Origin: Escherichia coli
GTDB lineage: Bacteria; Pseudomonadota; Gammaproteobacteria; Enterobacterales; Enterobacteriaceae
Length of the DNA: 64,000 nucleotides
Strand: one strand, 5' to 3'
Assembly: GCF_009931435.1 (NCBI RefSeq)
Contig: NZ_CP043414.1
Shown here: piece after piece, positions 6,353 to 44,558 of the stretch
Layout of the letters: every line of letters begins with the position of its first letter
How positions within the stretch are numbered: the stretch's first letter is position 1
The notes under the pieces: model-generated
The model's database searches: none
What the model was told of the DNA's origin: nothing
The model's input: the letters and a program-made list of their open reading frames with translations, nothing else
Translations under genes and position numbers: made by a program

Positions 6353-6409
6353 TGTTATTCCTTTTTTTGGCAGGGTGAAAATGCCCGGCGTCACCGGGCA
6401 AGTGCAGAG

Positions 6410-7474: not shown

Positions 7475-8669
7475 TATTTACCCCCTCACGATCTAAAGCG
7501 CGCAGCAGCATTCCTTTCGAAATGATGCCGACATACTGTTGGTCCTCGTCGACCACGGGCACCGCACAGGGCGCTTGTCCGACATGAGAGAGCAACTCGC
7601 TAAGAGGCGTTTGCGCATCGACTGCTAATGGCGCATCAATCAGCGCCGCATCAAGACCTTGCTGCTGCGTTAACGCGGTTTTAAGCGAATCGATAGACAC
7701 AGCGCCGACAAACTTATTACCGCGTTCGATAACGTAGCCATATTCGCGGTCTTCATCCTGCAATAATTTCAATGCCGAACGTGGGCCGAAGCCAGGGGTT
7801 TTACGAATTAAGCCATTCGGTGTCCGACGGGCAATATCTTTCGCACTGAATACCTGACTAATATCAACGCCACGGAAGAAGGTACGGACATAATCATTCG
7901 CCGGATTATTGAGAATTTCATCCGGTGTGCCAACCTGCACCACTTCACCATTTTGCATAATGGCAATTCGGTCGCCAATACGCATCGCTTCGTCGAGATC
8001 GTGAGAAATAAAGACAATGGTACGTTGATGTTTCGCCTGTAATTTTACCAGCTCATCCTGCATCTCAGTGCGAATTAATGGATCAAGCGCCGAGAAGGCT
8101 TCGTCCATTAATAATATATCCGGATTAATTGCTAATGCGCGGGCTAATCCGACGCGTTGACGCATCCCACCAGAGAGTTCGTCCGGGTAGCTATGGGCAT
8201 AATTTTCCAGCCCGACCTGACGCAGTGCATCAAGGGCTTTTTCCCGGCGTTCTTCGGCATTAATTCCGGCCAATTCCATACCGAATGCAGTATTGTCCAG
8301 CACGGTCATATGCGGCATTAAGGCAAAGGACTGGAAGACCATCGCAATCTTTTTTCTGCGCACCTCACGGAGTTCGGCGTCGGATATTTTGGCAATATCC
8401 ACACCATCAATCAGCACTTGCCCGCGGGTGGGTTCAATCAGGCGATTGAGAAGGCGTACCATTGTGGATTTACCCGAACCGGATAATCCCATGATGACAA
8501 ATATCTCGCCTTCTTCAATGGCCAGACTGGCGTCTTTTACGCCAAGCGATAGCCCGGTTTTTTCCAGAATTTGTTCTTTTGAAAGTCCTTGTTCGATATA
8601 TTTGAACGCTCGCTGAGGATGCTCGCCAAATATTTTATAGAGATTTTTAATTTCTAATTTAATTGCCAT
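7467..8669 (-). CDS. proV: Glycine betaine/proline ABC transporter ATPase ProV
   Basis: 400 aa, Walker [10 protein letters not shown], tandem CBS C-terminus. Confidence 0.92.
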
Positions 8670-9023
8670 GCAATAGAAAGATTCCTGTTATTTGTTTATG
8701 TCGATACATTACCCAATGGAAATAGTCACTTTTTTCTACCCTAACATACTGAGAATCTGAGGCAACCCCTGATGGCAAATGTGGCATGAATATTGATGCG
8801 AGCAAATCGCCGGAATTTCCCATGATATAAGGGCTGAGAGCAAATCGAGAAAGTTGATATTTTTTGTCATAGATAGCGAAAAAACGCCTGAATATTGTGG
8901 TTTCAGGCGAATAATGCAACAGAGTATCAGTGTAGATCACCACAAAATATTTGCGTGATAAAAAGCTATTTGGCAGGAATTATTTCCCTACTGTGGTTGG
9001 TGATATTTTTGAAAATAACACAC
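8670..9023 (-). promoter_or_regulatory. proU upstream regulatory and promoter region (AT-rich)
   Basis: 354 bp AT-rich gap upstream of proV; assigned from known locus organisation, individual sites not mapped. Confidence 0.45.
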
Positions 9024-9992
<969 letters not shown>

Positions 9993-12137
9993 TTAAAGTG
10001 CACAGGAGACGCAGCCTTCAATTTCAGTGCCTTCCAGCGCCATCTGACGCAGGCGGATGTAGTAGAGCGTTTTGATACCTTTGCGCCAGGCGTAAATCTG
10101 CGCTTTGTTGATATCGCGAGTGGTGGCGGTATCGGGGAAAAACAGTGTCAGCGACAGCCCCTGATCGACATGGCGAGTCGCTTCGGCGTAGGTGTCGATG
10201 ATCTTTTCTGCGCCGATTTCGTAAGCGTCCTGATACAGCGCCAGATTCTCGTTAGTCATAAATGGGGCAGGGTAGTAAACGCGTCCTGTTTTGCCTTCTT
10301 TGCGTATCTCTACTTTCGCCACAATCGGATGAATACTCGACGTGGCATGGTTGATATAAGAGATGGAGCCGGTTGGCGGCACTGCCTGGAGATTCTGGTT
10401 GTAAATGCCATAGCGCATCACGTCGTCGCGCAGTTGCGCCCACATTTCGCGGGTAGGTAACGTGATGCTGCTACGAGCAAACAACTCGCCAACTTTCGCC
10501 GTTTTCGGTTGCCAGTTACCTTGCAGATATTGGCTAAAATATTCACCGCTGGCATAGCGTGACTGTTTGAACCCGGCGAAGGTTTCACCGCGTTCGCGCG
10601 CCAGCAACATTGAGGTACGCAGCGCGTGCCAGGTGATGGTGTAGAAATAGAGATTGGTGAAATCCAGTGCTTCCGGCGAACCATAGGCGATGCCTTCTCG
10701 CGCCAGATAACCGTGTAAATTCATCTGCCCCAGACCGATAGCGTGTGAGGCGGCATTTCCGGCTTCGATGGACGGCACGCTGCGAATATGACTCATATCT
10801 GACACCGCAGTTAAACCGCGTACGGCGATCTCTACCGTGCGGGCAAAATCGGGGGAATCCATGGTGTGGGCAATATTCAACGAACCTAAATTGCAGGAAA
10901 TATCATGGCCTGTGCGGGCATAGTCGAGATTCTCGTCATACTCTGAGGCGCTGTTAACCTGCAAAATTTCTGAGCAGAGATTGCTCATATTTATACGCCC
11001 GGCAATAGGGTTAGCACGGTTAACCGTGTCTTCATACATGATGTAGGGATAGCCGGACTCAAACTGGATCTCCGCCAGTCGCTGGAAGAAATCACGGGCG
11101 TTGATGTATTTTTTGCGGATTCGCTCATCGGCAACCAGTTCGTCATAGTGTTCACTGATGGCGATATCGGCAAACGGCTTGCCATAAACACGCTCAACGT
11201 CATAGGGCGAAAACAGTGCCATCTGCGCATTCTCTTTTGCCAGATGGAAGGTGATATCCGGGATAACCACGCCCAGCGACAGTGTTTTAATGCGGATTTT
11301 CTCGTCGGCATTTTCCCGCTTTGTATCGAGAAAACGCAGTATATCGGGATGATGGGCATGTAAATAGACTGCGCCAGCACCCTGACGCGCGCCGAGCTGG
11401 TTGGCATAGGAAAATGCGTCTTCCAGCATTTTCATCACCGGAATCACGCCAGAAGATTGATTTTCAATACGTTTAATTGGCGCGCCCGCTTCCCGCAGAT
11501 TCGACAGCAAAAATGCCACGCCGCCGCCGCGTTTCGACAGTTGTAGTGCGGAATTTACCGCCCGGCCAATCGACTCCATATTGTCTTCAATACGCAGCAA
11601 AAAACAGGAAACCAGTTCGCCGCGCTGCTGCTTACCACAGTTGAGGAATGTCGGTGTTGCAGGCTGAAAGCGTCCTGACAGCATCTCATCGGTCAGTTGC
11701 GTCGCCAGTGTTTTATCGCCTTGTGCCAGCGTCAGCGCCACCATCGTGACTCGATCGGCAAAATCTTCCAGATAACGCTTACCGTCGAATGTCTTCAACG
11801 TATAGCTGGTGTAAAACTTCCATGCTCCGAGGAATGTCTGAAAACGAAAACCGCTGGCGTGTGCGTGGGCAAATAGCGTAATGACAAATTCGCGAGAGTA
11901 ACGGTTGAGGACGCTTTCATCATAGTAACCCTCGTTGACCAGCCAGTTCAGGCGCTGCTGTTGGCTGCTGAAGGTCACGCTATTCGGGCGTACATGCGTC
12001 GCCAAAAATGCATCTACTGCCTGGCGGTCTTTATCGAACTGAATGCGACCCGCGTTATCGTAAATATTAAGCATCGCATTCAGAGCGTGGTAATCCATCG
12101 TTTCCTGCGTCAGGCGTTCTGCGGTTGTCGTTGCCAA
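9993..12137 (-). CDS. nrdE: Class Ib ribonucleotide reductase alpha subunit NrdE
   Basis: 714 aa ending in ...CVSCAL. Confidence 0.92.
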
Positions 12138-12520
12138 AATTCGGTTACTCCTTTACGAACGTTTTCGATATCGCTTTGCGTACCCATGAGTTCAAAGCGG
12201 TACAGCCACGGCACGCCGCATTTCCGGGCAATCACATCTCCGGCGCGGCCATACGCCTCACCAAAGTTGCGATTACCCGAAGCAATAACGCCGCGAAGCA
12301 ACGCCCGGTTGTGCTCGTCGTTTAAAAAGCGAATGACCTGCCGTGGCACCGCGCCAGCCGTACCGCCGCCGCCGTAAGAGGGCACGATCAGGATGTAAGG
12401 CTCGTCTACCTGAATCCGTTCCCGCTCATTGAGCGGGATGCGCACCGCGGGCAGTCCTAAACGTTCGATAAAACGCTGCGTATTTTCGGAGCTGCTGGAA
12501 AAGTAGACGAGTTGGCTCAT
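12110..12520 (-). CDS. nrdI: Flavodoxin-like protein NrdI
   Basis: 136 aa, overlaps nrdE start and nrdH end. Confidence 0.9.
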
Positions 12521-12762
12521 GCACTGGCCGCGTGTGGCGCTGGATGCAGACGATTGATCATGTCCGGGCGGAAACCAGACCAGCTAAGATCTCCTGCAAT
12601 CACTACCGGCAACTGACGAAAGCCCTGAGCACGTAACGCTTCCGCCGCTTCAGGAACGCGATCGACATTAATCATTTCAAAATCAAAGCCCCGGTTTTCC
12701 ATCGCCCGTTTGGTGGCGTGGCACTGAACGCAATCGTTACGAGTGTAAATAGTAATGCGCAT
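12517..12762 (-). CDS. nrdH: Glutaredoxin-like protein NrdH
   Basis: 81 aa with CVQC redox motif. Confidence 0.9.
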
Positions 12763-12970
12763 GATTCGTATTTCCGTTTAAAATGAAGATACGGCGCGAT
12801 GATACGCGTCGGGTTGTCTCTCTGTTGATACAGAGATACTAGATGTAGTTGAAAAAAGATTCAACCATACAAGATATGGGAATTTTAGATTGATTACACC
12901 ACCGATGAATGGCTCAACGGGGTAGGGGATTTTGTGTTTTTTTGCCGGGCGATTGCCCGGCATCAGGAAG

Positions 12971-13402
12971 TTACATCCGCATGGAAACGGCCAGGCGGTT
13001 AAAGCAATTCATCAGCCCGATGGCAAATGTTAAGTCGCTGATTTCTGCTGCGCTGAAATGCTCAAGCAAAGGCTGATAAACGTCGTCTTCCGCATGGGTT
13101 CGGGCAATATCGGTCACCGATTCCGCCCATGCCAGCGCCGCCCGCTCGCGATCGTCAAAATGATGGCTTACGCGCCAGCCTGCCAGGGCATCCAGCTTAT
13201 GCTGCGGCACACCGGATTTGCGTAATGCTTTGCTGTGCATCTCCAGACAAAATGCGCAACCATTGATTTGCGAGACGCGCAAATAAACTAACTCCATCAG
13301 CGTAGTTTCCAGCGTGCTATTTTCCAGCGCCGTTTTGGCCTGCACCAGCGCGTTATATACCGTTGGGCTAAGTTCGTAGTAAGGCTGACGTAATGTAGTC
13401 AT
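12971..13402 (-). CDS. Carboxymuconolactone decarboxylase (AhpD-like) family protein
   Basis: 143 aa with CAFCLEMH (CxxC...H) motif typical of the CMD/AhpD family. Confidence 0.65.
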   Translation of the reverse strand: MTTLRQPYYELSPTVYNALVQAKTALENSTLETTLMELVYLRVSQINGCAFCLEMHSKALRKSGVPQHKLDALAGWRVSHHFDDRERAALAWAESVTDIARTHAEDDVYQPLLEHFSAAEISDLTFAIGLMNCFNRLAVSMRM

Positions 13403-13489
13403 ACAGTTTCTCCTCTTATTAACGCCCGCAATGTAGCACTATAATGGACTGCTAAAGAGAGCCATAAATTACCTAAAAAAGCAGACCAT

Positions 13490-14824
13490 ATGCCGCGCTA
13501 TCAGGATATCGCCCGTCAGTTAAAAACGGCTATTGAGCAAGGGGAACTGAAACCCGGCGCAAGGCTACCTTCAAGTCGTACCTGGTCGCAGGAACTGGGG
13601 GTGTCTCGATCCACTGTCGAAAATGCGTATGCTGAGCTGGTGGCGCAAGGATGGCTGATCAGGCGGGGACAGGCTGGCACATTTGTCAGTGAGCAGATAT
13701 ATCCGCAACAATCTACTGTACAAGTTGTGTCTTTTGCCGGTGAAAGTCAGCAACCGTTGCCATTTCAAATGGGATTACCCGCACTCGATCTCTTTCCGCG
13801 AGAGCTGTGGGCGCGGGTGATGGGGCGTCGCCTTCGTACCCAGACGCGCTTTGATTTGGCGTTAGGCGATGTCTGCGGTGAGGCGGCGTTGCGTGAGGCA
13901 ATAGTTGATTACTTACGCGTTTCACGTGGGATTGATTGTCAGCCAGAGCAGGTCTTTATCACTCACGGTTATGCGGCCTCAATGGCTTTAATTCTGCACG
14001 CGCTGGCGAAACCGGGAAACGGGATGTGGATGGAAGATCCCGGCTTTCCACTGATTCGCCCGATTGTCACTCGCCACGGTGTGGAAATTTTGCCTGTGCC
14101 GGTTGATGACAACGGACTGGATATCACAAGCGGAATACAAAATTATCCTGATGCGTGTTTTGCCCTGATAACACCAGCACACCAAAGCCCGCTGGGTGTG
14201 GCGCTCTCTTTAGCGCGCAGGCATCAGATACTGGAATGGGCAGAGCGTAGTCAGGCATGGATTATTGAAGATGATTATGACAGTGAGTTTCGCTATCACG
14301 GTAAGCCGTTACCGGCGTTAAAAAGTCTCGATGCACCGCAGCGGGTAATTTATGCCGGAACATTCAGCAAAGCACTATTTCCTGCATTGCGCTGTGCGTG
14401 GCTGGTGGTGCCGGTGAAGCAAATTGCACAATTCCGCCACCAGGCGTCACTGGCTCCATGTGCGGTACCTGTTCTATGGCAGAACACACTGGCAGACTTT
14501 CTTCGCGAGGGGCATTTCTGGCGGCATCTGAAGAAAATGCGTCAGCATTATGCTCAACGTCGGCAATGGATTGAGCAAGCGTTGACGCAGCAGGGATTTC
14601 AGGTTGTGCCGCAGAAAGGTGGTATCCAGATGGTGATCAGAATGATGGGCGATGATATTGCCCATGCGCGTAAAGCCAATGCTGCAGGCCTTGCGGTGCA
14701 GGCACTTAGCGACTGGCGTATCCGCTCAAGTGGGGAAGGTGGATTACTTCTCTCGTTTACCAATATCGTTAACGAAGGTATGGCGCGACAGGTAGCACAA
14801 CAATTACGTAAAGCCTTAAGCTAA
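13490..14824 (+). CDS. MocR-type (GntR HTH plus aminotransferase-like domain) transcriptional regulator
   Basis: 444 aa; N-terminal GntR-like HTH (SRTWSQELGVSRSTVENAYAEL), large C-terminal PLP-enzyme-like domain; divergent from the CMD gene. Confidence 0.75.
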   Translation: MPRYQDIARQLKTAIEQGELKPGARLPSSRTWSQELGVSRSTVENAYAELVAQGWLIRRGQAGTFVSEQIYPQQSTVQVVSFAGESQQPLPFQMGLPALDLFPRELWARVMGRRLRTQTRFDLALGDVCGEAALREAIVDYLRVSRGIDCQPEQVFITHGYAASMALILHALAKPGNGMWMEDPGFPLIRPIVTRHGVEILPVPVDDNGLDITSGIQNYPDACFALITPAHQSPLGVALSLARRHQILEWAERSQAWIIEDDYDSEFRYHGKPLPALKSLDAPQRVIYAGTFSKALFPALRCAWLVVPVKQIAQFRHQASLAPCAVPVLWQNTLADFLREGHFWRHLKKMRQHYAQRRQWIEQALTQQGFQVVPQKGGIQMVIRMMGDDIAHARKANAAGLAVQALSDWRIRSSGEGGLLLSFTNIVNEGMARQVAQQLRKALS

Positions 14825-14879
14825 AAAACCCCGAAATCAGGTTCCGGGGTCAAGACGCGTATTTATTATCATTGTTGCA

Positions 14880-15209
14880 CTACGATTTGCGCATGCTTAA
14901 CAGTGCGCCGATAAAAATACCAACCGCAGCTGCTGTACCCACGCTACACCAGGGTCTTTCACGAACAAAAGAATCCGCGCAGCCAACGGCATCGCGCGCG
15001 GCTTGCTGAACGCGAGTACGACCATGCATTCGCGCTCTGGTTTCTTTCAGTAGAGCCTGCGCTTTACTACGAGCGGCTTCGGCTTCCCCTTTGGCGTCGC
15101 TGCCCCAGGACTTCAATACAGATTCGAGGCTGTCAGCTAATTGATTGACATCATTCTGGATATCCTGCACGCCATCATCAACGTCGTTGCGGTTCGGTCG
15201 GTTAAACAT
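14880..15209 (-). CDS. ygaM: ElaB/YqjD-family membrane-anchored protein YgaM
   Basis: ORF 14880..15221; C-terminal TM anchor; start assumed at MFNRPNRND. Confidence 0.8.
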   Translation of the reverse strand: MFNRPNRNDVDDGVQDIQNDVNQLADSLESVLKSWGSDAKGEAEAARSKAQALLKETRARMHGRTRVQQAARDAVGCADSFVRERPWCSVGTAAAVGIFIGALLSMRKS

Positions 15210-15360
15210 ATGATCCCCCATTAGAATTCGATGTAATTTTCAGTGTAGACCATAATTTTCTTAACTGAGGTTCATCGCGGCTTTATGGACTTTTCTGAAA
15301 GCGTTGTGAATGCGCAATCAGGTAAGGTAGGCCCGCGGTTGATAATAACGAGGATCAAAT

Positions 15361-15705
15361 ATGTATTTACGACCAGACGAGGTGGCGCGCGTACTTGAAA
15401 AAGTCGGTTTTACTGTCGATGTGGTAACTCAGAAAGCGTATGGTTACCGCCGTGGGGAAAATTATGTCTATGTTAATCGCGAAGCGCGAATGGGACGTAC
15501 CGCTCTGGTAATTCATCCAACATTAAAAGAACGCAGTTCAACACTGGCTGAACCCGCTTCCGATATTAAAACGTGCGACCATTACCAGCAATTTCCGCTC
15601 TATTTAGCGGGTGAACGTCATGAGCATTACGGTATCCCACATGGCTTTAGTTCGCGTGTTGCGCTTGAACGTTATTTGAATGGTTTATTTGGCGAAGCCA
15701 GTTAA
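15361..15705 (+). CDS. ygaC: Uncharacterized protein YgaC
   Basis: 114 aa, [17 protein letters not shown]... Confidence 0.85.
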
Positions 15706-15741
15706 AGACGCGACTGGCGATGCCAGTCGCGAAAAGAAGGG

Positions 15742-16191
15742 TCAGGCTTTTACCTGCTGGTAACGGCTGACTTTAAACAGTCGGCGGCAATAATCGAGGA
15801 AGTAGCCATAAACCGCCCCCATCAACATCGAAACAACGATGTTTGAACTGACCGCAGCCATAATCTGATGCCAGTCTGCGCCCACCACTAACAAGATCGC
15901 CACATACACCGGTGACTGGAACGTCACATACGCCAGGATATCCGCCAGATTTTTTACCCAGCCCGACGGACTAACTTTGCGTGCCGCGCGCATAAACAGA
16001 TCGCGGTACATACCGTATGGCCATGCAATTAAGATGTTCACCGGAATCGCTACCAATCTGGAATAAAGAGACTGTTCGAAGCTCATTCCGGAGAGGAAAA
16101 CTTCAATACACATGTTCACGACAGAACAGTAAACAACCATCGCGAACGTATCTGCAACTGCATGACGCAAGCGTGACTGCGGTGAGAACAT
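15742..16191 (-). CDS. alaE: L-alanine exporter AlaE
   Basis: 149 aa membrane protein [18 protein letters not shown]... Confidence 0.9.
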
Positions 16192-16857
16192 GCTAATGCT
16201 CCTTAATAAAAGCGTAATGGGACGTTAATAGAGATGAAAGCAGTGGATCTCATTGCCATCTGCATTTTCGCATAGCGTATATCGCTGGCTATGACTAATC
16301 AATTAGTGAAAAATTTTTATTTAATCTGTTTTTGTAGATAAAATATTCCGTAGCGGCGCGTTTTTTGTACATTGTGGATTTTTACATGCTGATATGATTT
16401 ATTTTTAATTAAATCAATTAGATATGGGCGTATCTTTATTTTCACTAATGAAAGTTTGGGGGTGAGGTAACGCTATAAGCGTAGAGAATTCGGTGTATGC
16501 AGTGACTGGGTCATTTTCAGCATTTTTTATGCCAGACAATGTACATTAACAGCAGAAAGCACCAGTGAGTGATGTTTATTTTTATTCGTATATATTGCAT
16601 TTTTATTCGATTTGGTTTTATCAGGCTTGCGGAATTAGCGAGCAGAGAGCGCCGCTCTGTTCACCAATAACCGAAATTACTCATCAAATTGGCTAATATA
16701 TAATCTTGAAATTATTCTGAGAGTTTCAGAAAATAACAGCTGAAATAATCTCGTGCAGGACTGTAAATAGATTAAATTTTGTGGAAATATAATAAGTGAT
16801 CGCTTACACTACGCGACGAAATACTTTTTGTTTTGGCGTTAAAAGGTTTCCTTTATT

Positions 16858-17262
16858 ATGTCCGTAATGTTACAAAGTCTAAATAACATTCGCACTCTCC
16901 GTGCGATGGCTCGCGAATTCTCCATTGACGTTCTTGAAGAAATGCTCGAAAAATTCAGGGTTGTCACTAAAGAAAGACGTGAAGAAGAAGAACAGCAGCA
17001 GCGTGAACTGGCAGAGCGCCAGGAAAAAATTAGTACCTGGCTGGAGCTGATGAAAGCTGACGGAATTAACCCGGAAGAGTTATTGGGTAATAGCTCTGCT
17101 GCCGCACCACGCGCTGGTAAAAAACGCCAGCCGCGTCCGGCAAAATATAAATTCACCGATGTTAACGGTGAAACTAAAACCTGGACCGGTCAGGGCCGTA
17201 CACCGAAGCCAATCGCTCAGGCGCTGGCAGAAGGTAAATCTCTCGACGATTTCCTGATCTAA
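16858..17262 (+). CDS. stpA: H-NS paralog StpA
   Basis: 134 aa, [21 protein letters not shown]...; long AT-rich upstream region. Confidence 0.95.
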
Positions 17263-21184: not shown

Positions 21185-21420
21185 TTTTTGCCGGAGAGCG
21201 GCTCCGCCTTATCCGGCCGACATAGATTTATTCCTGTTCACGTACAGATTGTCGGATGCGGCGTAAACGCCTTATCCGACTTGGATTCTCGTAGGCCGGA
21301 CAAGACGCGAAGCGTCGCCTCCGGCATGGTGCGCCGAATGTCGGATGCGGCGTAAACGCCTTATCCGACCTACATTTCCGTAGGCCGGACAAGACGCAAA
21401 GCGTCGCCTCCGGCATGGGT
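21185..21420. repeat. Cluster of REP (BIME) elements between gabP and gabT
   Basis: Repeated tcggatgcggcgtaaacgccttatccgac and gtaggccggacaagacgc units in alternating orientation. Confidence 0.85.
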
Positions 21421-21426
21421 GCGGTG

Positions 21427-22707
21427 CTACTGCTTCGCCTCATCAAAACACTGGCTGATGATCTCCAGACCCTGACGGATCTGAGCATCTTCAATAGTGA
21501 GCGGGACAAGGATGCGCAGCACGTTGTAATACGGGCCGCAGGAGAGAAGAATCAGGCCTTTATCGCGGGCGCGCGCCACGATGTCGGCGGTGAGTTTGGC
21601 GTCCGGTTTACTGTGATCGCCACCTTCAAACAGCTCGATAGCAATCATCGCCCCCAGCCCGCGAACGTCGCCTACCTCAGTGTGTTTTTCGGCGATCGCC
21701 AGCAATCCGTCTTTCAGCTTTTGCCCCAGATCGTTGGCTTTTTGCAGCAGATTTTCCTGTTCAAACACCTTCAACACTTCCAGCGCCGCGACGCAGGCAA
21801 TCGGGTTACCCGCATAAGTGCCGCCTAAGCCGCCCGGAGCGACAGCGTCCATCACTTCGGCGCGCCCGGTGACGCCCGCCAGCGGGAAACCGCCTGCGAT
21901 CGATTTCGCAAAGGTGGTGAGATCAGGTGCCACGCCCATTTGTTCCATCGCAAACAGCGTGCCGGTACGCCCCGCGCCGCTTTGCACTTCATCGGCAATC
22001 AACATGATCCCGTGCTCGTCACACAGCGCACGTAAACGCTGCATAAAGGCTGGCGTCGCGGCGTAGAAACCGCCTTCGCCCTGAACCGGCTCAATCACGA
22101 TGGCGGCGATATCTTCCGGCGCCGCGTCATTTTTAAAAATTCGGTGAATACTTGCGATAGCGTCATCTTCACTGATCCCGTGGAGCGGGCAAGGATAAAG
22201 CGCGCGATAAACATGGCCCGGCATCAGGCCCATCCCAGCAGAGTACGGATTCACCTTGCCAGTCAGCGCCAGCGTATAGTGCGTGCGCCCGTGATACGCG
22301 CCGCTAAAGGCGATGGTGCCGCTACGTTTGGTGGCGGCGCGGGCGATTTTCACCGCGTTTTCCACCGCTTCGGAACCAGTCGTCACCAGCAGCGTTTTTT
22401 TGGCAAAATCGCCTGGCACCTTCTGATTCATAATCTCGCACAGCTCCAGATACGGCTCGTAGGCCAGCACCTGGAAGCAGGTGTGCGACAGTTTTTTCAA
22501 CTGCGCTTCCACCGCCGCAACCACTTTCGGATGCAGGTGCCCGGTATTGAGCACCGCAATCCCGCCCGCGAAATCAAGATACTCACGGCCTTCAACGTCC
22601 CACACCCGGCAGTTTTCCGCGCGGTCAGCGAAAATCGGGTGAATTTGCCCAACGCCACGGGGAATCGCCTGACTGCGGCGTTGCATTAACTCTTTATTGC
22701 TGCTCAT
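21427..22707 (-). CDS. gabT: 4-aminobutyrate aminotransferase GabT
   Basis: 426 aa, MSSNKELMQRRSQAIPRGVG... Confidence 0.92.
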   Translation of the reverse strand: MSSNKELMQRRSQAIPRGVGQIHPIFADRAENCRVWDVEGREYLDFAGGIAVLNTGHLHPKVVAAVEAQLKKLSHTCFQVLAYEPYLELCEIMNQKVPGDFAKKTLLVTTGSEAVENAVKIARAATKRSGTIAFSGAYHGRTHYTLALTGKVNPYSAGMGLMPGHVYRALYPCPLHGISEDDAIASIHRIFKNDAAPEDIAAIVIEPVQGEGGFYAATPAFMQRLRALCDEHGIMLIADEVQSGAGRTGTLFAMEQMGVAPDLTTFAKSIAGGFPLAGVTGRAEVMDAVAPGGLGGTYAGNPIACVAALEVLKVFEQENLLQKANDLGQKLKDGLLAIAEKHTEVGDVRGLGAMIAIELFEGGDHSKPDAKLTADIVARARDKGLILLSCGPYYNVLRILVPLTIEDAQIRQGLEIISQCFDEAKQ

Positions 22708-22720
22708 TCGCGTTCTCCAG

Positions 22721-24169
22721 TTAAAGACCGATGCACATGTATTTGATTTCTAAATAATCTTCGATGCCATACTTCGAACCTTCACGACCCAGCCCCGAGG
22801 CTTTTATGCCGCCGAACGGGGCCACTTCATTGGAAATAATGCCGGTATTGATACCGACGATGCCGTATTCCAGCGCCTCGCCCACGCGGAAGACGCGGCT
22901 TAAATCACGGGCGTAAAAATAGGCGGCAAGGCCAAACTCGGTGTCATTGGCCTGCGCAATCACATCGGTTTCATCTTTAAAGCGGAACAGCGGGGCGAGG
23001 GGGCCGAACGTCTCTTCTTTCGACACTTTGGCGTTGGCCGGAACATCCACCAGAATGGTCGGCTGGAAGAAGTTGCCGCCGCGTTCATGCGCTTTGCCTC
23101 CGCAAACCACGCGCGCGCCTTTCTCCAGCGCATCGGCGATATGCTCTTCCACTTTTGCTACCGCTTTTTCATCGATCAGTGGCCCAATGGTGACGCCTTT
23201 TTCCAGCCCATCACCGATGTGCAGTTTGCTCACCGCCTGCTGCAATTTTTCGGCAAAGCGGTCATACACGCCGTCCTGCACATACAGGCGGTTGGCGCAG
23301 ACGCAGGTTTGCCCGGCGTTACGGAATTTCGAGGCCAGCGCGCCTTCCACGGCTTTATCGAGATCGGCATCGTCAAAGACAATAAACGGTGCGTTGCCGC
23401 CCAGCTCCAGCGACACTTTTTTGATGTCTTTCGCGCACTGTTCCATTAACTGACGGCCAATTTCGGTCGAGCCGGTAAACGACAGCTTGCGCACCAGCGG
23501 ATTGCTGGTCAGTTCGTTACCGACCGCGCCCGCCGAACCGGTGACCACGTTAAATACGCCAGCCGGAATGCCCGCGCGAATCGCCAGCTCTGCCAGCGCC
23601 AGCGCAGAGAACGGCGTCTGACTGGCGGGCTTCAGCACCATCGTGCAGCCTGCCGCCAACGCCGGACCGGCTTTACGGGTAATCATCGCCGCCGGGAAGT
23701 TCCACGGCGTGATAGCGGCGGTAACGCCAATCGGCTGCTTGATAACAATCAGGCGTTTATCGGCCTGATGACCGGGAATGGTGTCGCCATAAATACGCTT
23801 GCCTTCTTCGGCAAACCACTCAATAAAGGAGGCGGCGTAGCTGATTTCGCCTTTCGCTTCAGCCAGCGGTTTACCCTGTTCGAGGGTCATCAGGCGCGCT
23901 AAATCGTCCTGGTGCTCCATCATCAAATTGAACCAGTTACGCAGAATGTTGGCGCGCTCTTTGGCGGTAAGGGCACGCCAGGCGGGCAGGGCGCGGTTGG
24001 CGGCGTCGATAGCGGCGCGGGTTTCATCTGCGCCCATTTTGGGTACGCTACCCAGCTTGTCGCCGTTTGCCGGATTAGTGACCTCGATGACTTCGCCATT
24101 GTTGGCGTCCAGCCACTCCCCGTTAATTAACGCCTGCTGGCGGAATAAGTTACTGTCGTTCAGTTTCAT
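22721..24169 (-). CDS. gabD: Succinate-semialdehyde dehydrogenase GabD
   Basis: 482 aa, MKLNDSNLFRQQALINGEW... Confidence 0.92.
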   Translation of the reverse strand: MKLNDSNLFRQQALINGEWLDANNGEVIEVTNPANGDKLGSVPKMGADETRAAIDAANRALPAWRALTAKERANILRNWFNLMMEHQDDLARLMTLEQGKPLAEAKGEISYAASFIEWFAEEGKRIYGDTIPGHQADKRLIVIKQPIGVTAAITPWNFPAAMITRKAGPALAAGCTMVLKPASQTPFSALALAELAIRAGIPAGVFNVVTGSAGAVGNELTSNPLVRKLSFTGSTEIGRQLMEQCAKDIKKVSLELGGNAPFIVFDDADLDKAVEGALASKFRNAGQTCVCANRLYVQDGVYDRFAEKLQQAVSKLHIGDGLEKGVTIGPLIDEKAVAKVEEHIADALEKGARVVCGGKAHERGGNFFQPTILVDVPANAKVSKEETFGPLAPLFRFKDETDVIAQANDTEFGLAAYFYARDLSRVFRVGEALEYGIVGINTGIISNEVAPFGGIKASGLGREGSKYGIEDYLEIKYMCIGL

Positions 24170-35800: not shown

Positions 35801-37396
35801 TTAATGACGCCACGGGATAATGTTACGCCAGTTAAACTTGAAGGGGGGGGCCGGATTACCGATAGCGCGACATTAACTATCGGAAATGGCGTCGATACGA
35901 CGCTTGCCGACCTGACGGCTGCCAGCCGGGGCAGTGTCTGGCTTAACAGCAATAATTCCTGTGCAGGCACCAGCAACTGCGAATATAGAGTAAACAGTTT
36001 GCTCCTCAACGACGGTGATGTTTATTTATCAGCACAAACAGCAGCGCCTGCCACAACTAACGGTATCTACAATACGCTGACCACCAGTGAACTTTCCGGC
36101 AGCGGTAATTTCTACCTGCATACCAACGTTGCAGGCTCCCGGGGCGATCAACTGGTCGTCAACAACAACGCCACTGGCAATTTTAACATCTTTGTTCAGG
36201 ATACCGGCGTCAGCCCTCAGTCTGACGACGCGATGACGCTGGTGAAAACAGGGGGAGGGGATGCTTCGTTTACGCTGGGTAATACCGGCGGTTTCGTTGA
36301 TCTTGGGACCTATGAGTATGTCCTGAAAAGCGACGGCAACAGCAACTGGAACCTGACCAATGATGTCAAACCCAACCCGGCCCCCAACCCAAATCCGAAA
36401 CCGGATCCAAAACCAGACCCAAAACCGGATCCGAAACCAGACCCGACTCCCGATCCAACGCCGACACCCGTCCCGGAGAAACGCATCACGCCTTCTACGG
36501 CAGCCGTACTCAATATGGCAGCAACATTACCGTTGGTCTTTGATGCTGAGCTAAACAGTATTCGCGAGCGGTTGAACATAATGAAAGCGAGTCCACACAA
36601 CAATAATGTCTGGGGGACGACGTATAACACCCGTAATAATGTCACCACCGATGCGGGTGCCGGGTTTGAGCAGACGCTGACCGGAATGACGGTGGGGATC
36701 GATAGCCGTAATGGTATTCCTGAGGGGATTGCTACGCTGGGCGCTTTTATGGGTTATTCCCATTCACATATCGGTTTTGATCGTGGAGGACATGGCAGTG
36801 TGGGCAGTTATTCTCTGGGGGGCTATGTCAGCTGGGAACATGAAAGTGGTTTCTATCTGGACGGTATCGTGAAGCTGAACCGCTTTGAAAGTAACGTAGC
36901 CGGTAAAATGAGCAGCGGTGGAGCCGCCAACGGCAGTTATCGCAGCAACGGGCTGGGCGGTCACATTGAAACCGGGATGCGATTTACCGATGGTAACTGG
37001 AACCTGACGCCGTATGCATCGTTAACGGGGTTCACCGCTGATAACCCCGAATATCATTTATCCAATGGTATGGAATCGAAATCAGTCGATACCCGCAGTA
37101 TATATCGTGAACTGGGCGCAACGCTGAGTTACAACATGCGTCTGGGGAACGGCATGGAAGTTGAGCCGTGGCTGAAGGCGGCTGTGCGCAAAGAATTTGT
37201 CGATGATAACCGGGTGAAAGTGAATAATGACGGTAATTTTGTCAATGATTTGTCGGGCAGACGTGGAATATACCAGGCAGGTATTAAAGCCTCATTCAGC
37301 AGTTCGTTAAGCGGGCATCTCGGGGTGGGGTATAGCCATGGTGCCGGTGTGGAATCCCCGTGGAACGCGGTGGCTGGTGTGAACTGGTCGTTCTGA
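32822..37396 (+). CDS. ypjA: AIDA-I-type autotransporter adhesin YpjA
   Basis: ORF 32735..37396; start placed at MNRTSRYYFRRSVLSLLISALIYAPPGMA signal peptide after GAGG RBS; repetitive passenger, Pro-rich linker, C-terminal beta-barrel ending ...NWSF. Confidence 0.85.
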   Translation: MNRTSRYYFRRSVLSLLISALIYAPPGMAAFTSNVIGVVNDETVDGVQKVDERGTTNNTHIINHGRQDVYGGVSNRSLIESGGYQDVGGHNNFVGQANNTTINGGRQTIHDGGISTGTIIESGNQDVYTGGISNGTTIKGGNSHISGGTANGTIIDGGSQRVTTQGHVDSTTINKSGSQDITQGSLATNTTINGGRQYVEQSTVETTTIKNGGEQRVYESYALDTTIEGGTQSLNNKSTAKYTQIYSGGTQIVDYTSTSDVIEIYSGGVLDVSGGTATNVTQHDGVILKTNTNGTTVSGTNSEGAFSIHNHVADNVLLENGGHLDINAYGSANKTIIKDKGTMSVLTNAKADATRIDNGGVMDVAGNATNTIINGGTQNINNHGIATGTNINSGTQNIKSGGKADTTNISSGSRQVVEKDGTATGSNISAGGSLIVYTGGIAHGVNQETGSALVANTGAGTDIEGYNKLSHFTITGGEANYVVLENTGELTVVAKTTAKNTTVDAGGKLIVQKEAKTDTTRLNNGGVLEVQDGGEAKHVEQQSGGALIASTTSGTLIEGTNSFGDAFYIRNSEAKNVVLENAGSLTVVTGSRAVDTIINANGKMDVYGKDVGTVLNSAGTQTIYASATSDKANIKGGKQTVYGLATEANIESGEQIVDGGSTDKTHIKGGTQTVQNYGKAINTDIVSGLQQIMANGTAEGSIINGGSQVVNEGGLAENSVLNDGGTLDVREKGSATGIQQSSQGALVATTRATRVTGTRADGVAFSIEQDAANNILLANGGVLTVESDTTSAKTQVNAGGREIVKTKATATGTMLTGGEQIVEGVANETTINDGGIQTVSANGEAVKTTINEGGTLTVNDNGKATDIIQNSGAALQTSTANGIEISGTHQYGTFSIAGNLATNVLLENGGNLLVLAGTEARDSTVGNGGAMQNLGQDFATKVNSGGQYTLGRSKDEFQALARAEDLQVAGGTAIVYAGTLADASVSGATGSLSLMTPRDNVTPVKLEGGGRITDSATLTIGNGVDTTLADLTAASRGSVWLNSNNSCAGTSNCEYRVNSLLLNDGDVYLSAQTAAPATTNGIYNTLTTSELSGSGNFYLHTNVAGSRGDQLVVNNNATGNFNIFVQDTGVSPQSDDAMTLVKTGGGDASFTLGNTGGFVDLGTYEYVLKSDGNSNWNLTNDVKPNPAPNPNPKPDPKPDPKPDPKPDPTPDPTPTPVPEKRITPSTAAVLNMAATLPLVFDAELNSIRERLNIMKASPHNNNVWGTTYNTRNNVTTDAGAGFEQTLTGMTVGIDSRNGIPEGIATLGAFMGYSHSHIGFDRGGHGSVGSYSLGGYVSWEHESGFYLDGIVKLNRFESNVAGKMSSGGAANGSYRSNGLGGHIETGMRFTDGNWNLTPYASLTGFTADNPEYHLSNGMESKSVDTRSIYRELGATLSYNMRLGNGMEVEPWLKAAVRKEFVDDNRVKVNNDGNFVNDLSGRRGIYQAGIKASFSSSLSGHLGVGYSHGAGVESPWNAVAGVNWSF

Positions 37397-39753: not shown

Positions 39754-40311
39754 TTAATTTTTATTATTCACTGGTTTCTTTTTTTCCTTCAAGTAATAAG
39801 TTTTCATGAAAGTCAAACGATCACCATTAAACATATAGTCTGGATTAATAAAATAATAGTTTTGTATCATGGTCTCAGCAATAAATTTCTTGTCAGCAAG
39901 TTCTTTCATCCCTTTGAAATATGTCGTTCTTGATATTTTTACAATCTCTTGATCAACAATATCGAATGACATTAATATCGTATCTGTATCTTTATTGTCT
40001 CTAATAGCAAGATACAGTATCTTAAATACTTTCTTACCTGATGAGGATAAACCCTCAATAGCTGATACGCCATCCACATAAAGTTTCACGAACTGTGTCT
40101 TGTCTACTTCCATTGACTGAAAGAAACCACCATGTCCAACCTGTTCTCCTGTATTTTCATTTACTACGGCTAAGCGATCTTTTCCTGTTGTGATACGTCT
40201 GATACCTGTTTTTGTATGTATATTTGTATCATTAAGGAATGGGTTTTTTACATGGCGAGGTAGACCTCTTCTTGATTTCTTTACTTCCGTTTGTATTTTA
40301 TTTTCTATCAT
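39754..40311 (-). CDS. Hypothetical protein, possibly DNA-binding or replication-associated
   Basis: 185 aa basic ORF adjacent to a highly structured repeat-containing intergenic region; function not recognisable by eye. Confidence 0.5.
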   Translation of the reverse strand: MIENKIQTEVKKSRRGLPRHVKNPFLNDTNIHTKTGIRRITTGKDRLAVVNENTGEQVGHGGFFQSMEVDKTQFVKLYVDGVSAIEGLSSSGKKVFKILYLAIRDNKDTDTILMSFDIVDQEIVKISRTTYFKGMKELADKKFIAETMIQNYYFINPDYMFNGDRLTFMKTYYLKEKKKPVNNKN

Positions 40312-40721: not shown

Positions 40722-40758
40722 CAGCGAAGTGATTGTGTGGAACAATCACGAATCGCTG
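40722..40758. repeat. 37 bp near-palindromic element copy 1 (CAGCG-AA-GTGATTGT-N5-ACAATCAC-GAAT-CGCTG)
   Basis: Read directly; perfect 8 bp inner inverted repeat plus outer 5 bp arms. Confidence 0.7.
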
Positions 40759-40860
40759 CTTTTATTGTGAGAGCTTAATTAATTTTTCTTTTACTTTATA
40801 TGCGTCTTCGACGCGATCTTTTTTTGGATAAATCCATCATTAACAGGGGCAAGCCCTGTC

Positions 40861-40897
40861 CAGCAAAGTGATTGTCGGCAACAATCACGAAATGCTG
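40861..40897. repeat. 37 bp near-palindromic element copy 2 (CAGCA-AA-GTGATTGT-N5-ACAATCAC-GAAA-TGCTG)
   Basis: Same architecture as copy 1; outer arms changed on both sides so pairing is preserved. Confidence 0.7.
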
Positions 40898-41227
40898 CTA
40901 CTAAAGATATAGTTTTCCTATACGTTTAAGAGCAAATGCTATATGTCAGATGGGGAATGCTATGTTTAAACATAGGATCTGAATTAAAAGTTAAAAGGAA
41001 AATAGATCTAACTATGTTCGAATACATTCGCTTATTACCTCATAGTAGTAAAATAAAATACAAAATGTCAGTTTTAGGGCGTAGCCGTGCGTAAGCATAG
41101 AGATAAATATCTTTTCAAAAAGAAGTTTAAAAATAATAAGTAAAAGCATGAAGAAAACACAGATATATTTGATTTTTACGCTTACGATAGAGTATTAAGC
41201 AGTAATAAATAAAAAAGGGAAAACACA

Positions 41228-41497
41228 ATGAACAATATCAAAATGATTACGCTCTTCTATCCCCATGAAAAAACACCATTTATGATCTGTATTGTAAACA
41301 AAGTAGAAGATACAGAACTTGGATTGAAATTAACTCTTGAAAACGGCAACAACATTTGTGTCAATAATTATAGTCATTATCTGTTATCAGAGTCTGTAAA
41401 TCGTTGTAATAAAGAAAGGTTAAAGAGTATTTATATTCGCTTGGTTTCAGAACTCACGCAGATGAGTGAAGAAACTATAAAATCGCAGATGTTTTAA
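41228..41497 (+). CDS. Hypothetical protein
   Basis: 89 aa ORF, first of four co-oriented genes. Confidence 0.45.
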   Translation: MNNIKMITLFYPHEKTPFMICIVNKVEDTELGLKLTLENGNNICVNNYSHYLLSESVNRCNKERLKSIYIRLVSELTQMSEETIKSQMF

Positions 41498-41579
41498 AAG
41501 TTATATTGAACATAATAAATATTTTTGATATTACGGTCAGTTGCATGGTATTAAATAAAAGAATAACAGGAAAAATATC

Positions 41580-41984
41580 ATGCGAAAAATAAAAACAAAA
41601 ATCTACTTGCCTACAGCTTTAACAGGAAACATGGATAAACACTATATCCCTGTTCTAGAGGATTTAAGAAAAGCGATATACAGCGACAGAATGTTATCAA
41701 GGCTTGCAGATAACGGTAGTATTGTTATCCATAGTTCAGTTGGGTATCCGGTTGCTAAATACAAAAACACGGGGATTAGCATAGGTATAGAACCATTGAA
41801 TCCAATGATAAGACAAGATCTGACTCTTGGATATATCGTGGTCGTCAGAAACGGGAAATCATCACAGGAGATTAATGGTTTACTTAACAGGTCATTGCCA
41901 AAAGCAATAAGCACTTTTAAGGATCACATCAATGAATATGAAGCAGTAAAAAGTAAAATGCGACAACAAACTATGATCTGGTAA
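41580..41984 (+). CDS. Hypothetical protein
   Basis: 134 aa ORF, 82 bp after preceding gene. Confidence 0.5.
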   Translation: MRKIKTKIYLPTALTGNMDKHYIPVLEDLRKAIYSDRMLSRLADNGSIVIHSSVGYPVAKYKNTGISIGIEPLNPMIRQDLTLGYIVVVRNGKSSQEINGLLNRSLPKAISTFKDHINEYEAVKSKMRQQTMIW

Positions 41985-42021
41985 AATATTTAATCTGATA
42001 ACTTCAGGAGGAGGATGAGCG

Positions 42022-43005
42022 ATGGAAGGTAAGTTAATTTTTTGTTCCGATGCAATACTACGGTTTCAGTCCGATTACGATGAAACCGCTGCCGTTCCAT
42101 TGCTATCCATCCAGAACGTCATAGCCGATACCGATCCGTTCTTTCTTCTCCGTTTCTTCCACCATACCGTTCTGATTGAAGAAGGAACAACGCTGGCAAG
42201 TATCTTTCTGGCAATAGAACCGTGGAAGGCTTTGTTAGCGGCTTATCTGGACAGAGATGTTGGTGCTTATATAGATGAGGTAAGAAAACCGTCCGGGCCA
42301 ACGACATGGGATATTGAATGGATTGGGATTGATCGTCGTAGCATGGTTTACCGCGCTTATAAACGTCAGGAGATGCAGGATGGAGAGGATTTTTCTGACT
42401 ATTTAAACCGGGAACGCGTTCTGACCGATGAATTTGAAATTGAAAGTGGCTGTGAGGCTTCTGGCTACATTAAAGGTGATAAAGAACGCTGGAGCATCAG
42501 TGGTGATGTTCACGAGATAAAGAATCTGCCTGTAATCCTCTATAGCAAACAGACATTGATGACTTCACCGAAAGACGGTTTGCTGAAGAAAAACGTATCG
42601 GGTGTGAAGAGTTCCAAGCACAGTTGCTTCGTTTATGGCGATACCTCGTTTTCATTGAGAGAGGTTATGGAAGCCATCTACATTAGCGGGCTGTTCTTCT
42701 ATGCGCCAAGAGACGCCGCCAGTAGTCTTGATGCGCTGAAAGCGAGTGTGGCTGGACTGGAAGACGAACTGACCGAGGTGCCTGAAACAGAATCGGATAA
42801 TAATGAAACAGATGAAGAACCTACCATCGTCGTAGCCGACGGTGCTTTTGATTCGCTCGCTGCTCACATGGAGTCTGAAAAAGCGGAGTGGCAATACATT
42901 AAGAAGTTGTGCCAGCAAGATAGCGAGCTGCCCATACGTATTGGTAGTATCAGAATAGCTGAGCCTGCGGAGCTATGTATTGGCGGGAAAATCTTACATG
43001 AATAG
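42022..43005 (+). CDS. Hypothetical protein with acidic C-terminal segment
   Basis: 327 aa ORF, 37 bp after preceding gene; locally higher GC than neighbours. Confidence 0.55.
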   Translation: MEGKLIFCSDAILRFQSDYDETAAVPLLSIQNVIADTDPFFLLRFFHHTVLIEEGTTLASIFLAIEPWKALLAAYLDRDVGAYIDEVRKPSGPTTWDIEWIGIDRRSMVYRAYKRQEMQDGEDFSDYLNRERVLTDEFEIESGCEASGYIKGDKERWSISGDVHEIKNLPVILYSKQTLMTSPKDGLLKKNVSGVKSSKHSCFVYGDTSFSLREVMEAIYISGLFFYAPRDAASSLDALKASVAGLEDELTEVPETESDNNETDEEPTIVVADGAFDSLAAHMESEKAEWQYIKKLCQQDSELPIRIGSIRIAEPAELCIGGKILHE

Positions 43006-43171
43006 GTACAGGCAACAGTTAGCATTGTGGTGAAAGGATATGGTGTATGTTTGCTCACTTTTTTGTGTTATCTCCTGATCAACCCTATGTCGACTATGGT
43101 AAAATTCCCAACTTTAACACCAACGTAGCAAGTGTTTTATGAGCGCGTAGTCAACCAGTAAGGACATTGAA

Positions 43172-44089
43172 TTGAACATTAACGCAACACCAGTATTAAT
43201 TACACTTGTCTACGAAGCGCTTTTAAGATCCTTTTGGCGTAAACCCGCACTCAAAAAATTTTTGTTATCGTCGCATATTTCTGAAAGCTTCATTTCAACT
43301 TGGAGAGAAGATGAATCAAAAAGAAATTTTTTAGATCGTTTGTTCCCTAAATTACAAAGTAGTGCAAAAGGAAAAAATGTTATCTGCCATATGGCAGTTA
43401 ATCTTTCTGAACAGACTTCTTTTCCTGATTTAAAAGGCTGGGAAGATTCTCTACAAATGATTCAATCTGCAACTGATGCCATAAAAGATTTAAAAAACTA
43501 TATAACAAAACAAAATGAAGAACATCAGACTGAAAAAGAAAAACAAGAGTTCAGAGCACGAGCAGAAAAAGAGAGAACTGAAATAAAACGCTCTGAGACG
43601 GATTTGATGAAATTAAAGAATGAATTTGAGTGTTTGCATAATGAAATAGGAACTCAAAATGGTGGCTACGCATTTGAAAAGTGGTTTTTTAAACTTGTAG
43701 ACTACTGTGAAATTGTCTGTAAAAAACCATATAAAACTAATGGTAGGCAAGTAGATGGAGCCATAACTATTGAAGGCACTACGTACCTTGTTGAATTAAA
43801 ATTTCAGAAAACACAGGCTGACGCCATCGACATCGACTCATTAAAAGCTAAAGTGAGTAAAATGGCTGATAACACGATGGCTGTAATGATTTCTGTATCA
43901 GGTTATTCCTCTGTTGCCATAACTGAATCATCGGGTAGTCGAACCCCTTTATTATTATTAGATTATAGCCATTTATATTTATTCTTGAGTGGTGGAATGA
44001 GATTTGATGAAATAATTACACGGATAAGACGCCATTCTTCACAAACAGGAGAATCTTACCTATCTGTAAATTCATTTGGTGGATTTTAA
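43172..44089 (+). CDS. Protein with C-terminal PD-(D/E)xK (Mrr-like) nuclease motif
   Basis: 305 aa; GGYAFEKWFFKLVDYCEIV...VDGAITIEGTTYLVELKFQK fits E...D...(E)xK restriction-endonuclease-fold signature; N-terminal region with coiled-coil-like stretch. Confidence 0.55.
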   Translation: MNINATPVLITLVYEALLRSFWRKPALKKFLLSSHISESFISTWREDESKRNFLDRLFPKLQSSAKGKNVICHMAVNLSEQTSFPDLKGWEDSLQMIQSATDAIKDLKNYITKQNEEHQTEKEKQEFRARAEKERTEIKRSETDLMKLKNEFECLHNEIGTQNGGYAFEKWFFKLVDYCEIVCKKPYKTNGRQVDGAITIEGTTYLVELKFQKTQADAIDIDSLKAKVSKMADNTMAVMISVSGYSSVAITESSGSRTPLLLLDYSHLYLFLSGGMRFDEIITRIRRHSSQTGESYLSVNSFGGF

Positions 44090-44149
44090 ATAAACAATAA
44101 TGCTGTATGAAGTAATCTCAGCATTATTGTTTCCAATAATTAATGTTGG

Positions 44150-44527
44150 TTAATCCATCAAGCCGCGTGAAGTCTTACTTGCAGTATGACGAAAATCATA
44201 ACGTTCCACAACATCACCCTTAAACCAGATATCCAGTGATTTAATATGTGCTGTGCTGCTATTGGTCAACAGAGCAAGGCCCGGTATGTAGTTAGATAGC
44301 TGGCTTTCTCCCGTCATACTTGAGTAGTTCCACATCTCCTGTCCATCATTCGTAGCGCGTGTCTGAGGCTCTCCAAAGGCAGCAAGAATTTCTTGTTGGG
44401 TTGTTTTTCCATTGACGATTTTAACTTTAACCGTCTGATGATTTTCATCAGTTAGGGATTTATTACCATGAACGGTACAGCCACTAAGTGGTAATATGAT
44501 AAAAATAGCAAATAACAATTTTTTCAT
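44150..44527 (-). CDS. Lipoprotein, BamE/OmlA-like pattern
   Basis: ORF 44150..44569; start at MKKLLFAIFIILPLSGC (lipobox); G.T.QQ...G.P pattern resembling SmpA/OmlA fold. Confidence 0.55.
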   Translation of the reverse strand: MKKLLFAIFIILPLSGCTVHGNKSLTDENHQTVKVKIVNGKTTQQEILAAFGEPQTRATNDGQEMWNYSSMTGESQLSNYIPGLALLTNSSTAHIKSLDIWFKGDVVERYDFRHTASKTSRGLMD

Positions 44528-44558
44528 TTTAGTTCCATAAATAGATGATAGATGAGAC

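Follow-up and report, generated by a model that had tools for sequence, protein, structure and literature searches.

Four co-oriented genes on a mobilisable island

We analysed a stretch of 64,000 nucleotides (nt) from an Escherichia coli chromosome (contig NZ_CP043414.1, assembly GCF_009931435.1), hereafter referred to as the window, with a focus on four neighbouring open reading frames (ORFs), g1 to g4, the last of which encodes a stand-alone putative nuclease. All four genes lie on the plus strand: g1 at 41228–41497 (89 amino acids, aa), g2 at 41580–41984 (134 aa), g3 at 42022–43005 (327 aa), and g4 at 43172–44089 (305 aa). The spacers between them measure 82, 37, and 166 nt. An original prediction, made from the sequence alone, had described four plus-strand genes with short gaps, the first three unlike anything recognised and the third with a distinctly higher GC content, and this description holds for the ORFs at the positions given above. 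g1, g2, and g3 have no match in Pfam, NCBIfam, PADLOC, or PHROGs, and none at E ≤ 1 against PADLOC-DB v2.0.0. The GC content of g3 is 0.460, compared with 0.307 for g1, 0.360 for g2, and 0.339 for g4. Translation of g4 starts at a TTG codon with an AAGGA ribosome-binding site 6 nt upstream; this start is backed by the alignment of the family N-terminus and by a RefSeq coding sequence over the same stretch in CM146014.

The window is part of an Escherichia chromosome, and its outer parts are ~98% identical to E. coli. Both of these parts consist of core genes: gab/glaH/lhgO lie in the left one, and ssrA, smpB, ratA, and recN in the right one. The low-GC block of the window terminates at ssrA (57019–57381), the gene for transfer-messenger RNA (tmRNA), beside which lies a tyrosine integrase gene (55625–56854; NF007246, 451 bits, above cutoff). 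The block further contains a MobQ relaxase gene (47283–48764; 250 bits, above cutoff) and type IV pilin genes. In addition, positions 41001–46000 are collinear, at ~96% identity, with an annotated E. coli island bearing RepL, MobQ, TraD, BfpA, and PilV. The integrase, the relaxase, and this collinearity bear out the predicted location of the four genes on a mobile island.

The backbone of the element resembles that of ROD21 and the EARL islands, with which it shares a MobQ relaxase, a TraD-like gene, a type IV pilin, PilV, lipoproteins, and a RepL-like (SEN1990-type) gene. The published gene list of ROD21 shows the same order of lipoprotein, unknown ORFs, and RepL-like gene (PMC10655114, PMC6035254). 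Moreover, g3 homologues with 89–92% identity are found in Salmonella Enteritidis, Dublin, and Gallinarum, which are serovars bearing the excisable island ROD21. The collinear backbone and the g3 homologues in these serovars identify the element as an integrative mobilisable element (IME) with a ROD21/EARL-type backbone, inserted next to ssrA. EARL islands have been described at Asn-tRNA genes, whereas the element in the window is located at ssrA and has its own integrase. The tmRNA locus is a hotspot for defence islands in E. coli, and its occupants include IMEs (PMC10121019).

A cargo slot between g3 and a lipoprotein gene

The four genes are not one system, as each of them occurs without the others. 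In a survey of 5426 complete E. coli genomes, a query spanning positions 41000–44300 found matches in 520 genomes, just three of which cover most of the query. g3 is present in 451 of the genomes and g4 in four, so that g3 or parts of the g1–g3 block occur in ~450–520 E. coli genomes versus four with g4. Islands that do carry g4 vary in the remaining genes. E. coli AP027813, Serratia marcescens UMH3, and Erwinia sp. OLFS4 have g1, g3, and g4 and lack g2, while CM146014 has lost g1 through an IS3 insertion and retains g2–g4 intact. g2 is additionally missing from the CFT073 island. Frameshifts affect g1 in CFT073 and R1 and, according to annotation, g3 in E50 and M-17. When a single genome was scanned for each species, 12 loci with g3 emerged, nine of them without detectable g1, g2, or g4. 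Conversely, g4 was found without g1–g3 in eight unrelated contexts that have no neighbour in common, and when the ORFs within 4 kb of g4 were clustered for ten contexts, g4 itself was the sole family common to all. The original prediction had joined the four genes into one defence or toxin module and had named their co-occurrence across genomes as a check, and a lack of conserved synteny as a refutation. That check was run; conserved co-occurrence is absent, synteny is not conserved, and the proposal of a single module is thereby largely refuted.

Comparison of the window with four sister islands by blastn revealed the boundaries along which g4 is exchanged. Backbone homology stops at 42965/42966, 40 nt before the stop codon of g3, and returns at 44150/44152, which is the 3′ end of a convergent lipoprotein gene (44150..44569, minus strand). 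This gene is 95–96% identical in the sister islands, and its homologues are named “lipoprotein” or “SEN1984 family lipoprotein” in RefSeq. The exchangeable cargo segment (42966..44150) consists of the last 13 codons of g3, the 166-nt spacer, g4, and a 60-nt spacer, and the breakpoints are identical for three cargo types. A second, independent indel at 41498–41973 holds g2, an ORFan, and is missing from several sister islands. g1 is a backbone ORF of the island. g3, too, is a backbone gene and forms the left flank of the slot; its high GC content had been taken as a sign of module shuffling, but the segment that is exchanged is the one carrying g4.

The slot is occupied by g4 in the window and, in related islands, by g4 together with an FRG protein, by Thoeris ThsA/ThsB, or by a ComEA-family gene. 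Downstream of g3, strains E50 and M-17 carry SIR2 and TIR genes, which correspond to Thoeris ThsA (PADLOC, 8e-203) and ThsB (1.4e-85) and are both intact beside the frameshifted g3. In strains R1 and CFT073, g3 (92% and ~86% identical, respectively) is followed by a 390-aa gene unrelated to g4. This gene, annotated in RefSeq as “ComEA family DNA-binding protein”, lies at 6024–7196 of the CFT073 locus and is also found in other strains (6047–7219 in another locus). A 466-aa protein is encoded directly after g4 in E. coli AP027813 (locus 6741–8141) and in Serratia (10196–11596), while the Erwinia locus ends just past g4. The AP027813 protein is annotated in RefSeq as an FRG-domain protein and matches the PADLOC candidate system PDC-S15 at 3.5e-100; the Serratia copy is of the same size.

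g3 and the convergent lipoprotein gene thus bracket a slot that holds varied, mostly defence-type cargo in related islands. This arrangement resembles the defence hotspots described for P2/P4 elements, integrative conjugative elements, and IMEs (PMC9122126, PMC10121019), which likewise feature two conserved flanking genes, sharp breakpoints, and interchangeable defence cargo. The element as a whole sits in the E. coli tmRNA hotspot (PMC10121019). While the hotspot concept is well established, the slot between g3 and the SEN1984-type lipoprotein gene itself appears to be undescribed in the literature covered. The slot represents a defined hotspot of ROD21-like islands and a place to look for more cargo, the ComEA-family protein of CFT073 being one example. 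About 8–10% of the complete E. coli genomes have an island of this kind, CFT073 and Nissle among them, and such islands also occur in Salmonella Enteritidis; knowing the position of their variable immune cargo is of practical use. Nothing in these results overturns the current understanding of defence islands.

The g4 nuclease family and its proposed role

More than 1000 database proteins match g4, nearly all of them ~304 aa in length. Homologues that are ~60% identical over the full length are found in Pseudomonas, Xenorhabdus, Aeromonas, Oceanospirillum, Methylophaga, and Thiocapsa, as well as in the alphaproteobacterium Commensalibacter. Among 27 homologues, 26% of the alignment columns are invariant. 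These include the putative catalytic residues E169, D195, E208, and K210 (in the motifs FE169, VD195G, and VE208LK210) and a set of N-terminal residues comprising W22, R23, W44, K50, R51, D55, FPDL84–87, and WEDS90–93. The AlphaFold model of g4 (predicted local distance difference test, pLDDT, 77) shows a helical N-terminal domain (residues ~7–80), a pair of long, coiled-coil-like helices (93–158), and an alpha/beta C-terminal domain, a PD-(D/E)xK domain of the FokI/Mrr type (162–292). A Foldseek search with the C-terminal domain model returned restriction-endonuclease folds, and the alpha/beta core together with the E...D...ExK residues places this domain in the PD-(D/E)xK fold. The restriction-endonuclease signature read from the sequence of the last gene was therefore correct, and so was the description of an unrelated N-terminus with a coiled-coil-like stretch. 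A sequence search of the PDB with a g4 profile found nothing, and the N-terminal domain has no match in Pfam or the PDB.

A g4 homologue with 61% identity (P0051) matches the Pfam family Mrr_cat (PF04471) at 2.4e-6 over residues 165–268, and many members of the family carry a precomputed PF04471 assignment. In UniProt and RefSeq, relatives are labelled “restriction endonuclease type IV Mrr domain-containing”. The family is found across many phyla and is labelled by automatic annotation only; a literature search identified no paper on it.

To place g4 among characterised nucleases, we compared it with several known systems. It resembles Mrr and other type IV enzymes in being a single polypeptide without a cognate methyltransferase and in its C-terminal PD-(D/E)xK domain with E...D...ExK residues, the domain for which homologues match Mrr_cat. 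The N-terminal domain of E. coli Mrr is a winged-helix DNA-binding domain. g4 differs from Mrr in this part, where an all-helical bundle is followed by a long coiled coil and no known fold is matched, and the g4 protein of the window falls under the Pfam reporting thresholds. In contrast to FokI and R.BspD6I, g4 shows no recognisable domain for sequence-specific DNA recognition and lacks a type IIS methyltransferase as partner, and its sequence identity to these enzymes is just 10–11%. The best Foldseek match of g4 in the PDB is Cdn1 (8z4i, E 7e-4), and the nuclease domain is matched by the Can2 family as well. Cdn1, Can2, and Card1 have the same overall layout as g4, with a regulatory domain at the N-terminus and a nuclease at the C-terminus, but g4 lacks a CARF or SAVED domain, and neither cyclase nor CRISPR genes adjoin it in the contexts examined. 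The PADLOC candidate PDC-S02, like g4 a single-gene candidate, aligns weakly over the coiled coil and nuclease of g4 (residues 102–263), with a score (E 0.0046, 14 bits) that does not amount to family membership, and PDC systems are themselves unvalidated candidates. Finally, g4 differs from type II restriction–modification systems in that no cognate methyltransferase lies beside it, be it in the window or in the other g4 contexts compared (ten contexts).

The genomic surroundings of g4 homologues are diverse, and several are rich in defence genes. In Xenorhabdus the homologue lies between fbp and ppa, in Aeromonas after asnB, and in Commensalibacter beside ilvD. In Pseudomonas, the spot is variable: one species has a GmrSD_N gene beside the homologue, and a second species has an SduA_C (Shedu-type) gene there. 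The Oceanospirillum homologue is located beside GajB (3.5e-172), PD-T7-4 (7e-99), and toxin–antitoxin modules, and the one in Methylophaga near ParDE. On a Chryseobacterium plasmid, a full-length relative with 27% identity adjoins a Gabija system (GajA 1e-194, GajB 1.4e-148) and an Abi gene. The genes upstream of the Methylophaga homologue were considered as diverged forms of g2 and g3, and this assignment was rejected on comparison.

We consider g4 to be, probably, an autonomous and regulated DNA endonuclease that is carried as defence cargo of an island hotspot. It is best placed, as a candidate, among the stand-alone restriction-type nucleases, a broad class known from the defence hotspots of mobile elements. 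We propose that g4 would self-associate through its coiled coil, pairing two cleavage domains as in FokI, and that the conserved N-terminal domain would restrain or target the nuclease until a trigger is met. This trigger could be modified or foreign DNA, or a cue of infection. Once triggered, g4 would cut DNA and thereby restrict phage or other incoming DNA, and it would do so without a partner methyltransferase or any of g1–g3. The original prediction of an anti-phage nuclease effector within a mobile island remains plausible in this respect, with Thoeris in sister slots and defence genes next to homologues, while the partners that it assigned to the nuclease do not stand. A speculative four-gene system is thus replaced by a simpler and directly testable picture, with g4 as a clean single-gene candidate for nuclease-based defence.

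Several observations weigh against this interpretation. The g4 protein of the window has no Pfam hit, and Mrr_cat is not found even at E ≤ 10. No model of PADLOC-DB v2.0.0 is significant, the best after PDC-S02 being PDC-M29B (E 0.005). Not every slot occupant is of the defence type: the ComEA-family protein has no PADLOC match and is not defence-type by this test, and in ROD21 the putative methyltransferase SEN1985 adjoins the lipoprotein gene SEN1984 (PMC10655114), from which we infer that the ROD21 slot lies at SEN1985/SEN1984 and that SEN1985 would be a non-defence-type occupant. Some g4 homologues have ordinary housekeeping genes on both sides and no further defence gene in the vicinity. 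A scan of the g3–g4 spacer revealed no promoter-like site, and co-transcription with g3 is possible. Furthermore, two of the four E. coli genomes with g4 (CP149565 and CP149553) have a copy that matches 917 of 918 nt, with a 1-nt indel that splits it into two frames in tblastn, and the RefSeq product is just 232 aa (CP149565 locus 22171–23084). This copy is probably a recent pseudogene, and the indel indicates that g4 is not under strong selection everywhere.

These frameshifted copies also bear on the alternative that g4 serves the island itself, as an addiction or stabilisation nuclease or as a weapon against competing mobile DNA, or that it is a decaying orphan restriction gene. The presence of g4 on mobile elements and plasmids, the toxin–antitoxin modules near it in two contexts, and the lack of an adjacent methyltransferase in all ten contexts would fit such a role or such a decay. 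However, full-length conservation at ~60% identity from Alpha- to Gammaproteobacteria, with invariant columns that include both the catalytic and the N-terminal residues, argues for a maintained function. In addition, g4 has no conserved antitoxin-like partner, and single-copy, solitary genes between housekeeping genes are atypical of addiction modules. We therefore regard a role for the island, or decay, as possible but rather unlikely.

The g3 family and neighbouring features

Close homologues of g3 are all found in Enterobacterales, and the wider family comprises 184 clusters at 50% identity. None of 70 diverse members has a Pfam match, and g3 has no PDB match by sequence. An AlphaFold2 model built from an alignment of 21 sequences reached a pLDDT of 34, too low for a fold search. 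The gene is essentially absent from plasmids. The distribution of g2 is narrower still, as its 70 homologues, all with at least 65% identity and none with a domain, are confined to islands of Escherichia, Salmonella, and Citrobacter.

A g3 homologue heads a conserved cassette, with flanks that differ by genus, in Klebsiella indica, Kluyvera georgiana, Tatumella, Phytobacter, and the Enterobacteriaceae isolate RIT714. In Klebsiella indica (locus 7998–16889), the g3-like gene (332 aa) is followed by genes for a MukF-like (470 aa), a MukE-like (260 aa), and a MukB-like protein (1527 aa), and then for a protein of 335 aa. The MukB-like protein scores 1489 bits, whereas the divergent MukF-like (58 bits, cutoff 407) and MukE-like (65 bits) proteins score far below their cutoffs; the Pfam matches in the cassette are MukE/MksE and MukB. 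The 335-aa protein shows a faint match to JetD_C and to PADLOC JetD1 (1.3e-5), and the cassette also matches PADLOC JetC3 (3.9e-5). The JetD-like gene was seen in K. indica; for the other four genera, the fetched loci extend no further than the MukB-like gene. Compared with Wadjet (JetABCD), which combines kleisin-like and KITE-like subunits with an SMC ATPase and the Toprim nuclease JetD, the cassette has the look of a Wadjet-like system of the Muk type preceded by one additional gene, with the qualification that the MukF, MukE, and JetD scores are weak. g3 itself matches no Wadjet component, and a literature search returned no description of a g3-led MukF/MukE/MukB/JetD-like cassette. Window ORFs at 30432–37396 were considered as MukFEB-like genes; tblastn gave no such match, and these ORFs encode a YpjCB-family protein and an Ag43-type autotransporter.

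The simplest reading of these data is that g3 recurrently borders variable cargo. One could also imagine that genes of the g3 family lead, and are functionally tied to, a range of immune effectors encoded after them (the Mrr-like nuclease in the window, Thoeris or other cargo in sister islands, and the Muk-type cassette), serving the mobile element as a common regulator, a trigger sensor, or a self-protection factor, an idea to which we attach a low probability. Applied to the window, it would make g3 a leader gene (a regulator, sensor, or safety factor) that works with the effector following it, and g3 and g4 a two-gene unit. The position of g3, always directly upstream of variable cargo and with the breakpoint inside its own 3′ end, is compatible with such a unit, as are its leading place in the Muk-type cassette of five other genera and a distant g3 homologue that abuts a HicB-like antitoxin gene beside ApeA. 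(This HicB-like gene was also considered as a relative of g2 and rejected.) On the other hand, E50 and M-17 combine an annotated frameshift in g3 with intact ThsA and ThsB, and outside this island lineage no g4 homologue has g3 as a neighbour. g3 homologues in Enterobacter, Atlantibacter, and Pantoea are found without the Muk cassette or other such cargo, and Pfam and PDB sequence searches detect no DNA-binding or enzymatic domain in g3. A two-gene unit of g3 and g4 is accordingly improbable.

The least probable arrangement, and a very unlikely one, is a co-transcribed g1–g4 system with g4 as effector and g1–g3 as sensors, regulators, or antitoxin: it would agree with the shared orientation, with gaps of at most 166 nt, with the joint presence of all four genes in the window and in CP149565, and with the absence of a convincing internal promoter or terminator from a scan that was of little information, as it gave fewer sites than shuffles did, but it conflicts with the disparity between the g1–g3 block and g4 in E. 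coli, the solitary g4 genes in eight unrelated contexts, the three g4-bearing islands without g2, the loss of g1 in CM146014, and the recombination breakpoint that separates g4 from g1–g3.

Upstream of g1, a divergent backbone gene at 39754..40311 (minus strand) is considered RepL-like on the basis of its position, which is that of the RefSeq “replication/maintenance protein RepL” in sister islands; it has no NCBIfam match of its own. The same position corresponds to SEN1990 in ROD21, reported to be a winged helix–turn–helix (wHTH) protein that is dispensable for the maintenance of that island (PMC10655114). The 916-nt spacer separating this gene from g1 contains two copies of a 39-nt hairpin, at 40722–40760 and 40861–40899, which lie 139 nt apart and have the core GTGATTGT-N5-ACAATCAC. 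Both fold much better than shuffled sequence (z-scores −5.8 and −4.4). The core is present in all related islands fetched from E. coli, Serratia, and Erwinia, with two to three copies in nine of them and one in CFT073. The hairpin pair may be an operator for the wHTH protein of the SEN1990 type, or an origin or origin-of-transfer (oriT)-type site. An Rfam scan found no RNA family in the region.

The same island carries a Lamassu pair beside the integrase gene, on the minus strand at 52247–55079, which adds to the defence-rich neighbourhood of the g4 family. It consists of LmuB (52247–54019; PADLOC 1.8e-224) and LmuA/DUF4297 (53991–55079; PADLOC 2.1e-137).

No att repeats of the 3′ end of ssrA were found, nor was a recombination directionality factor. 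Without such repeats, the left end of the element can be placed only roughly, at ~37.4–38.1 kb. To the left of it lies a further low-GC stretch with the only tRNA gene of the window, tRNA-Met (29605–29680), the gene for the YpjCB-family protein (30432–31886; 962 bits), and that for the autotransporter, an Ag43/AIDA-type protein of 1553 aa (32735–37396). This stretch, lying between the gab genes and the element, is apparently a distinct and older island segment. An ORF of 750 aa at 26792–29044 (minus strand), also in low-GC DNA, has no PADLOC match and trivial NCBIfam matches only. In the core chromosomal part of the window, Rfam identifies naRNA4, a nucleoid-associated noncoding RNA derived from repetitive extragenic palindromes, at 21294–21370 (minus strand).

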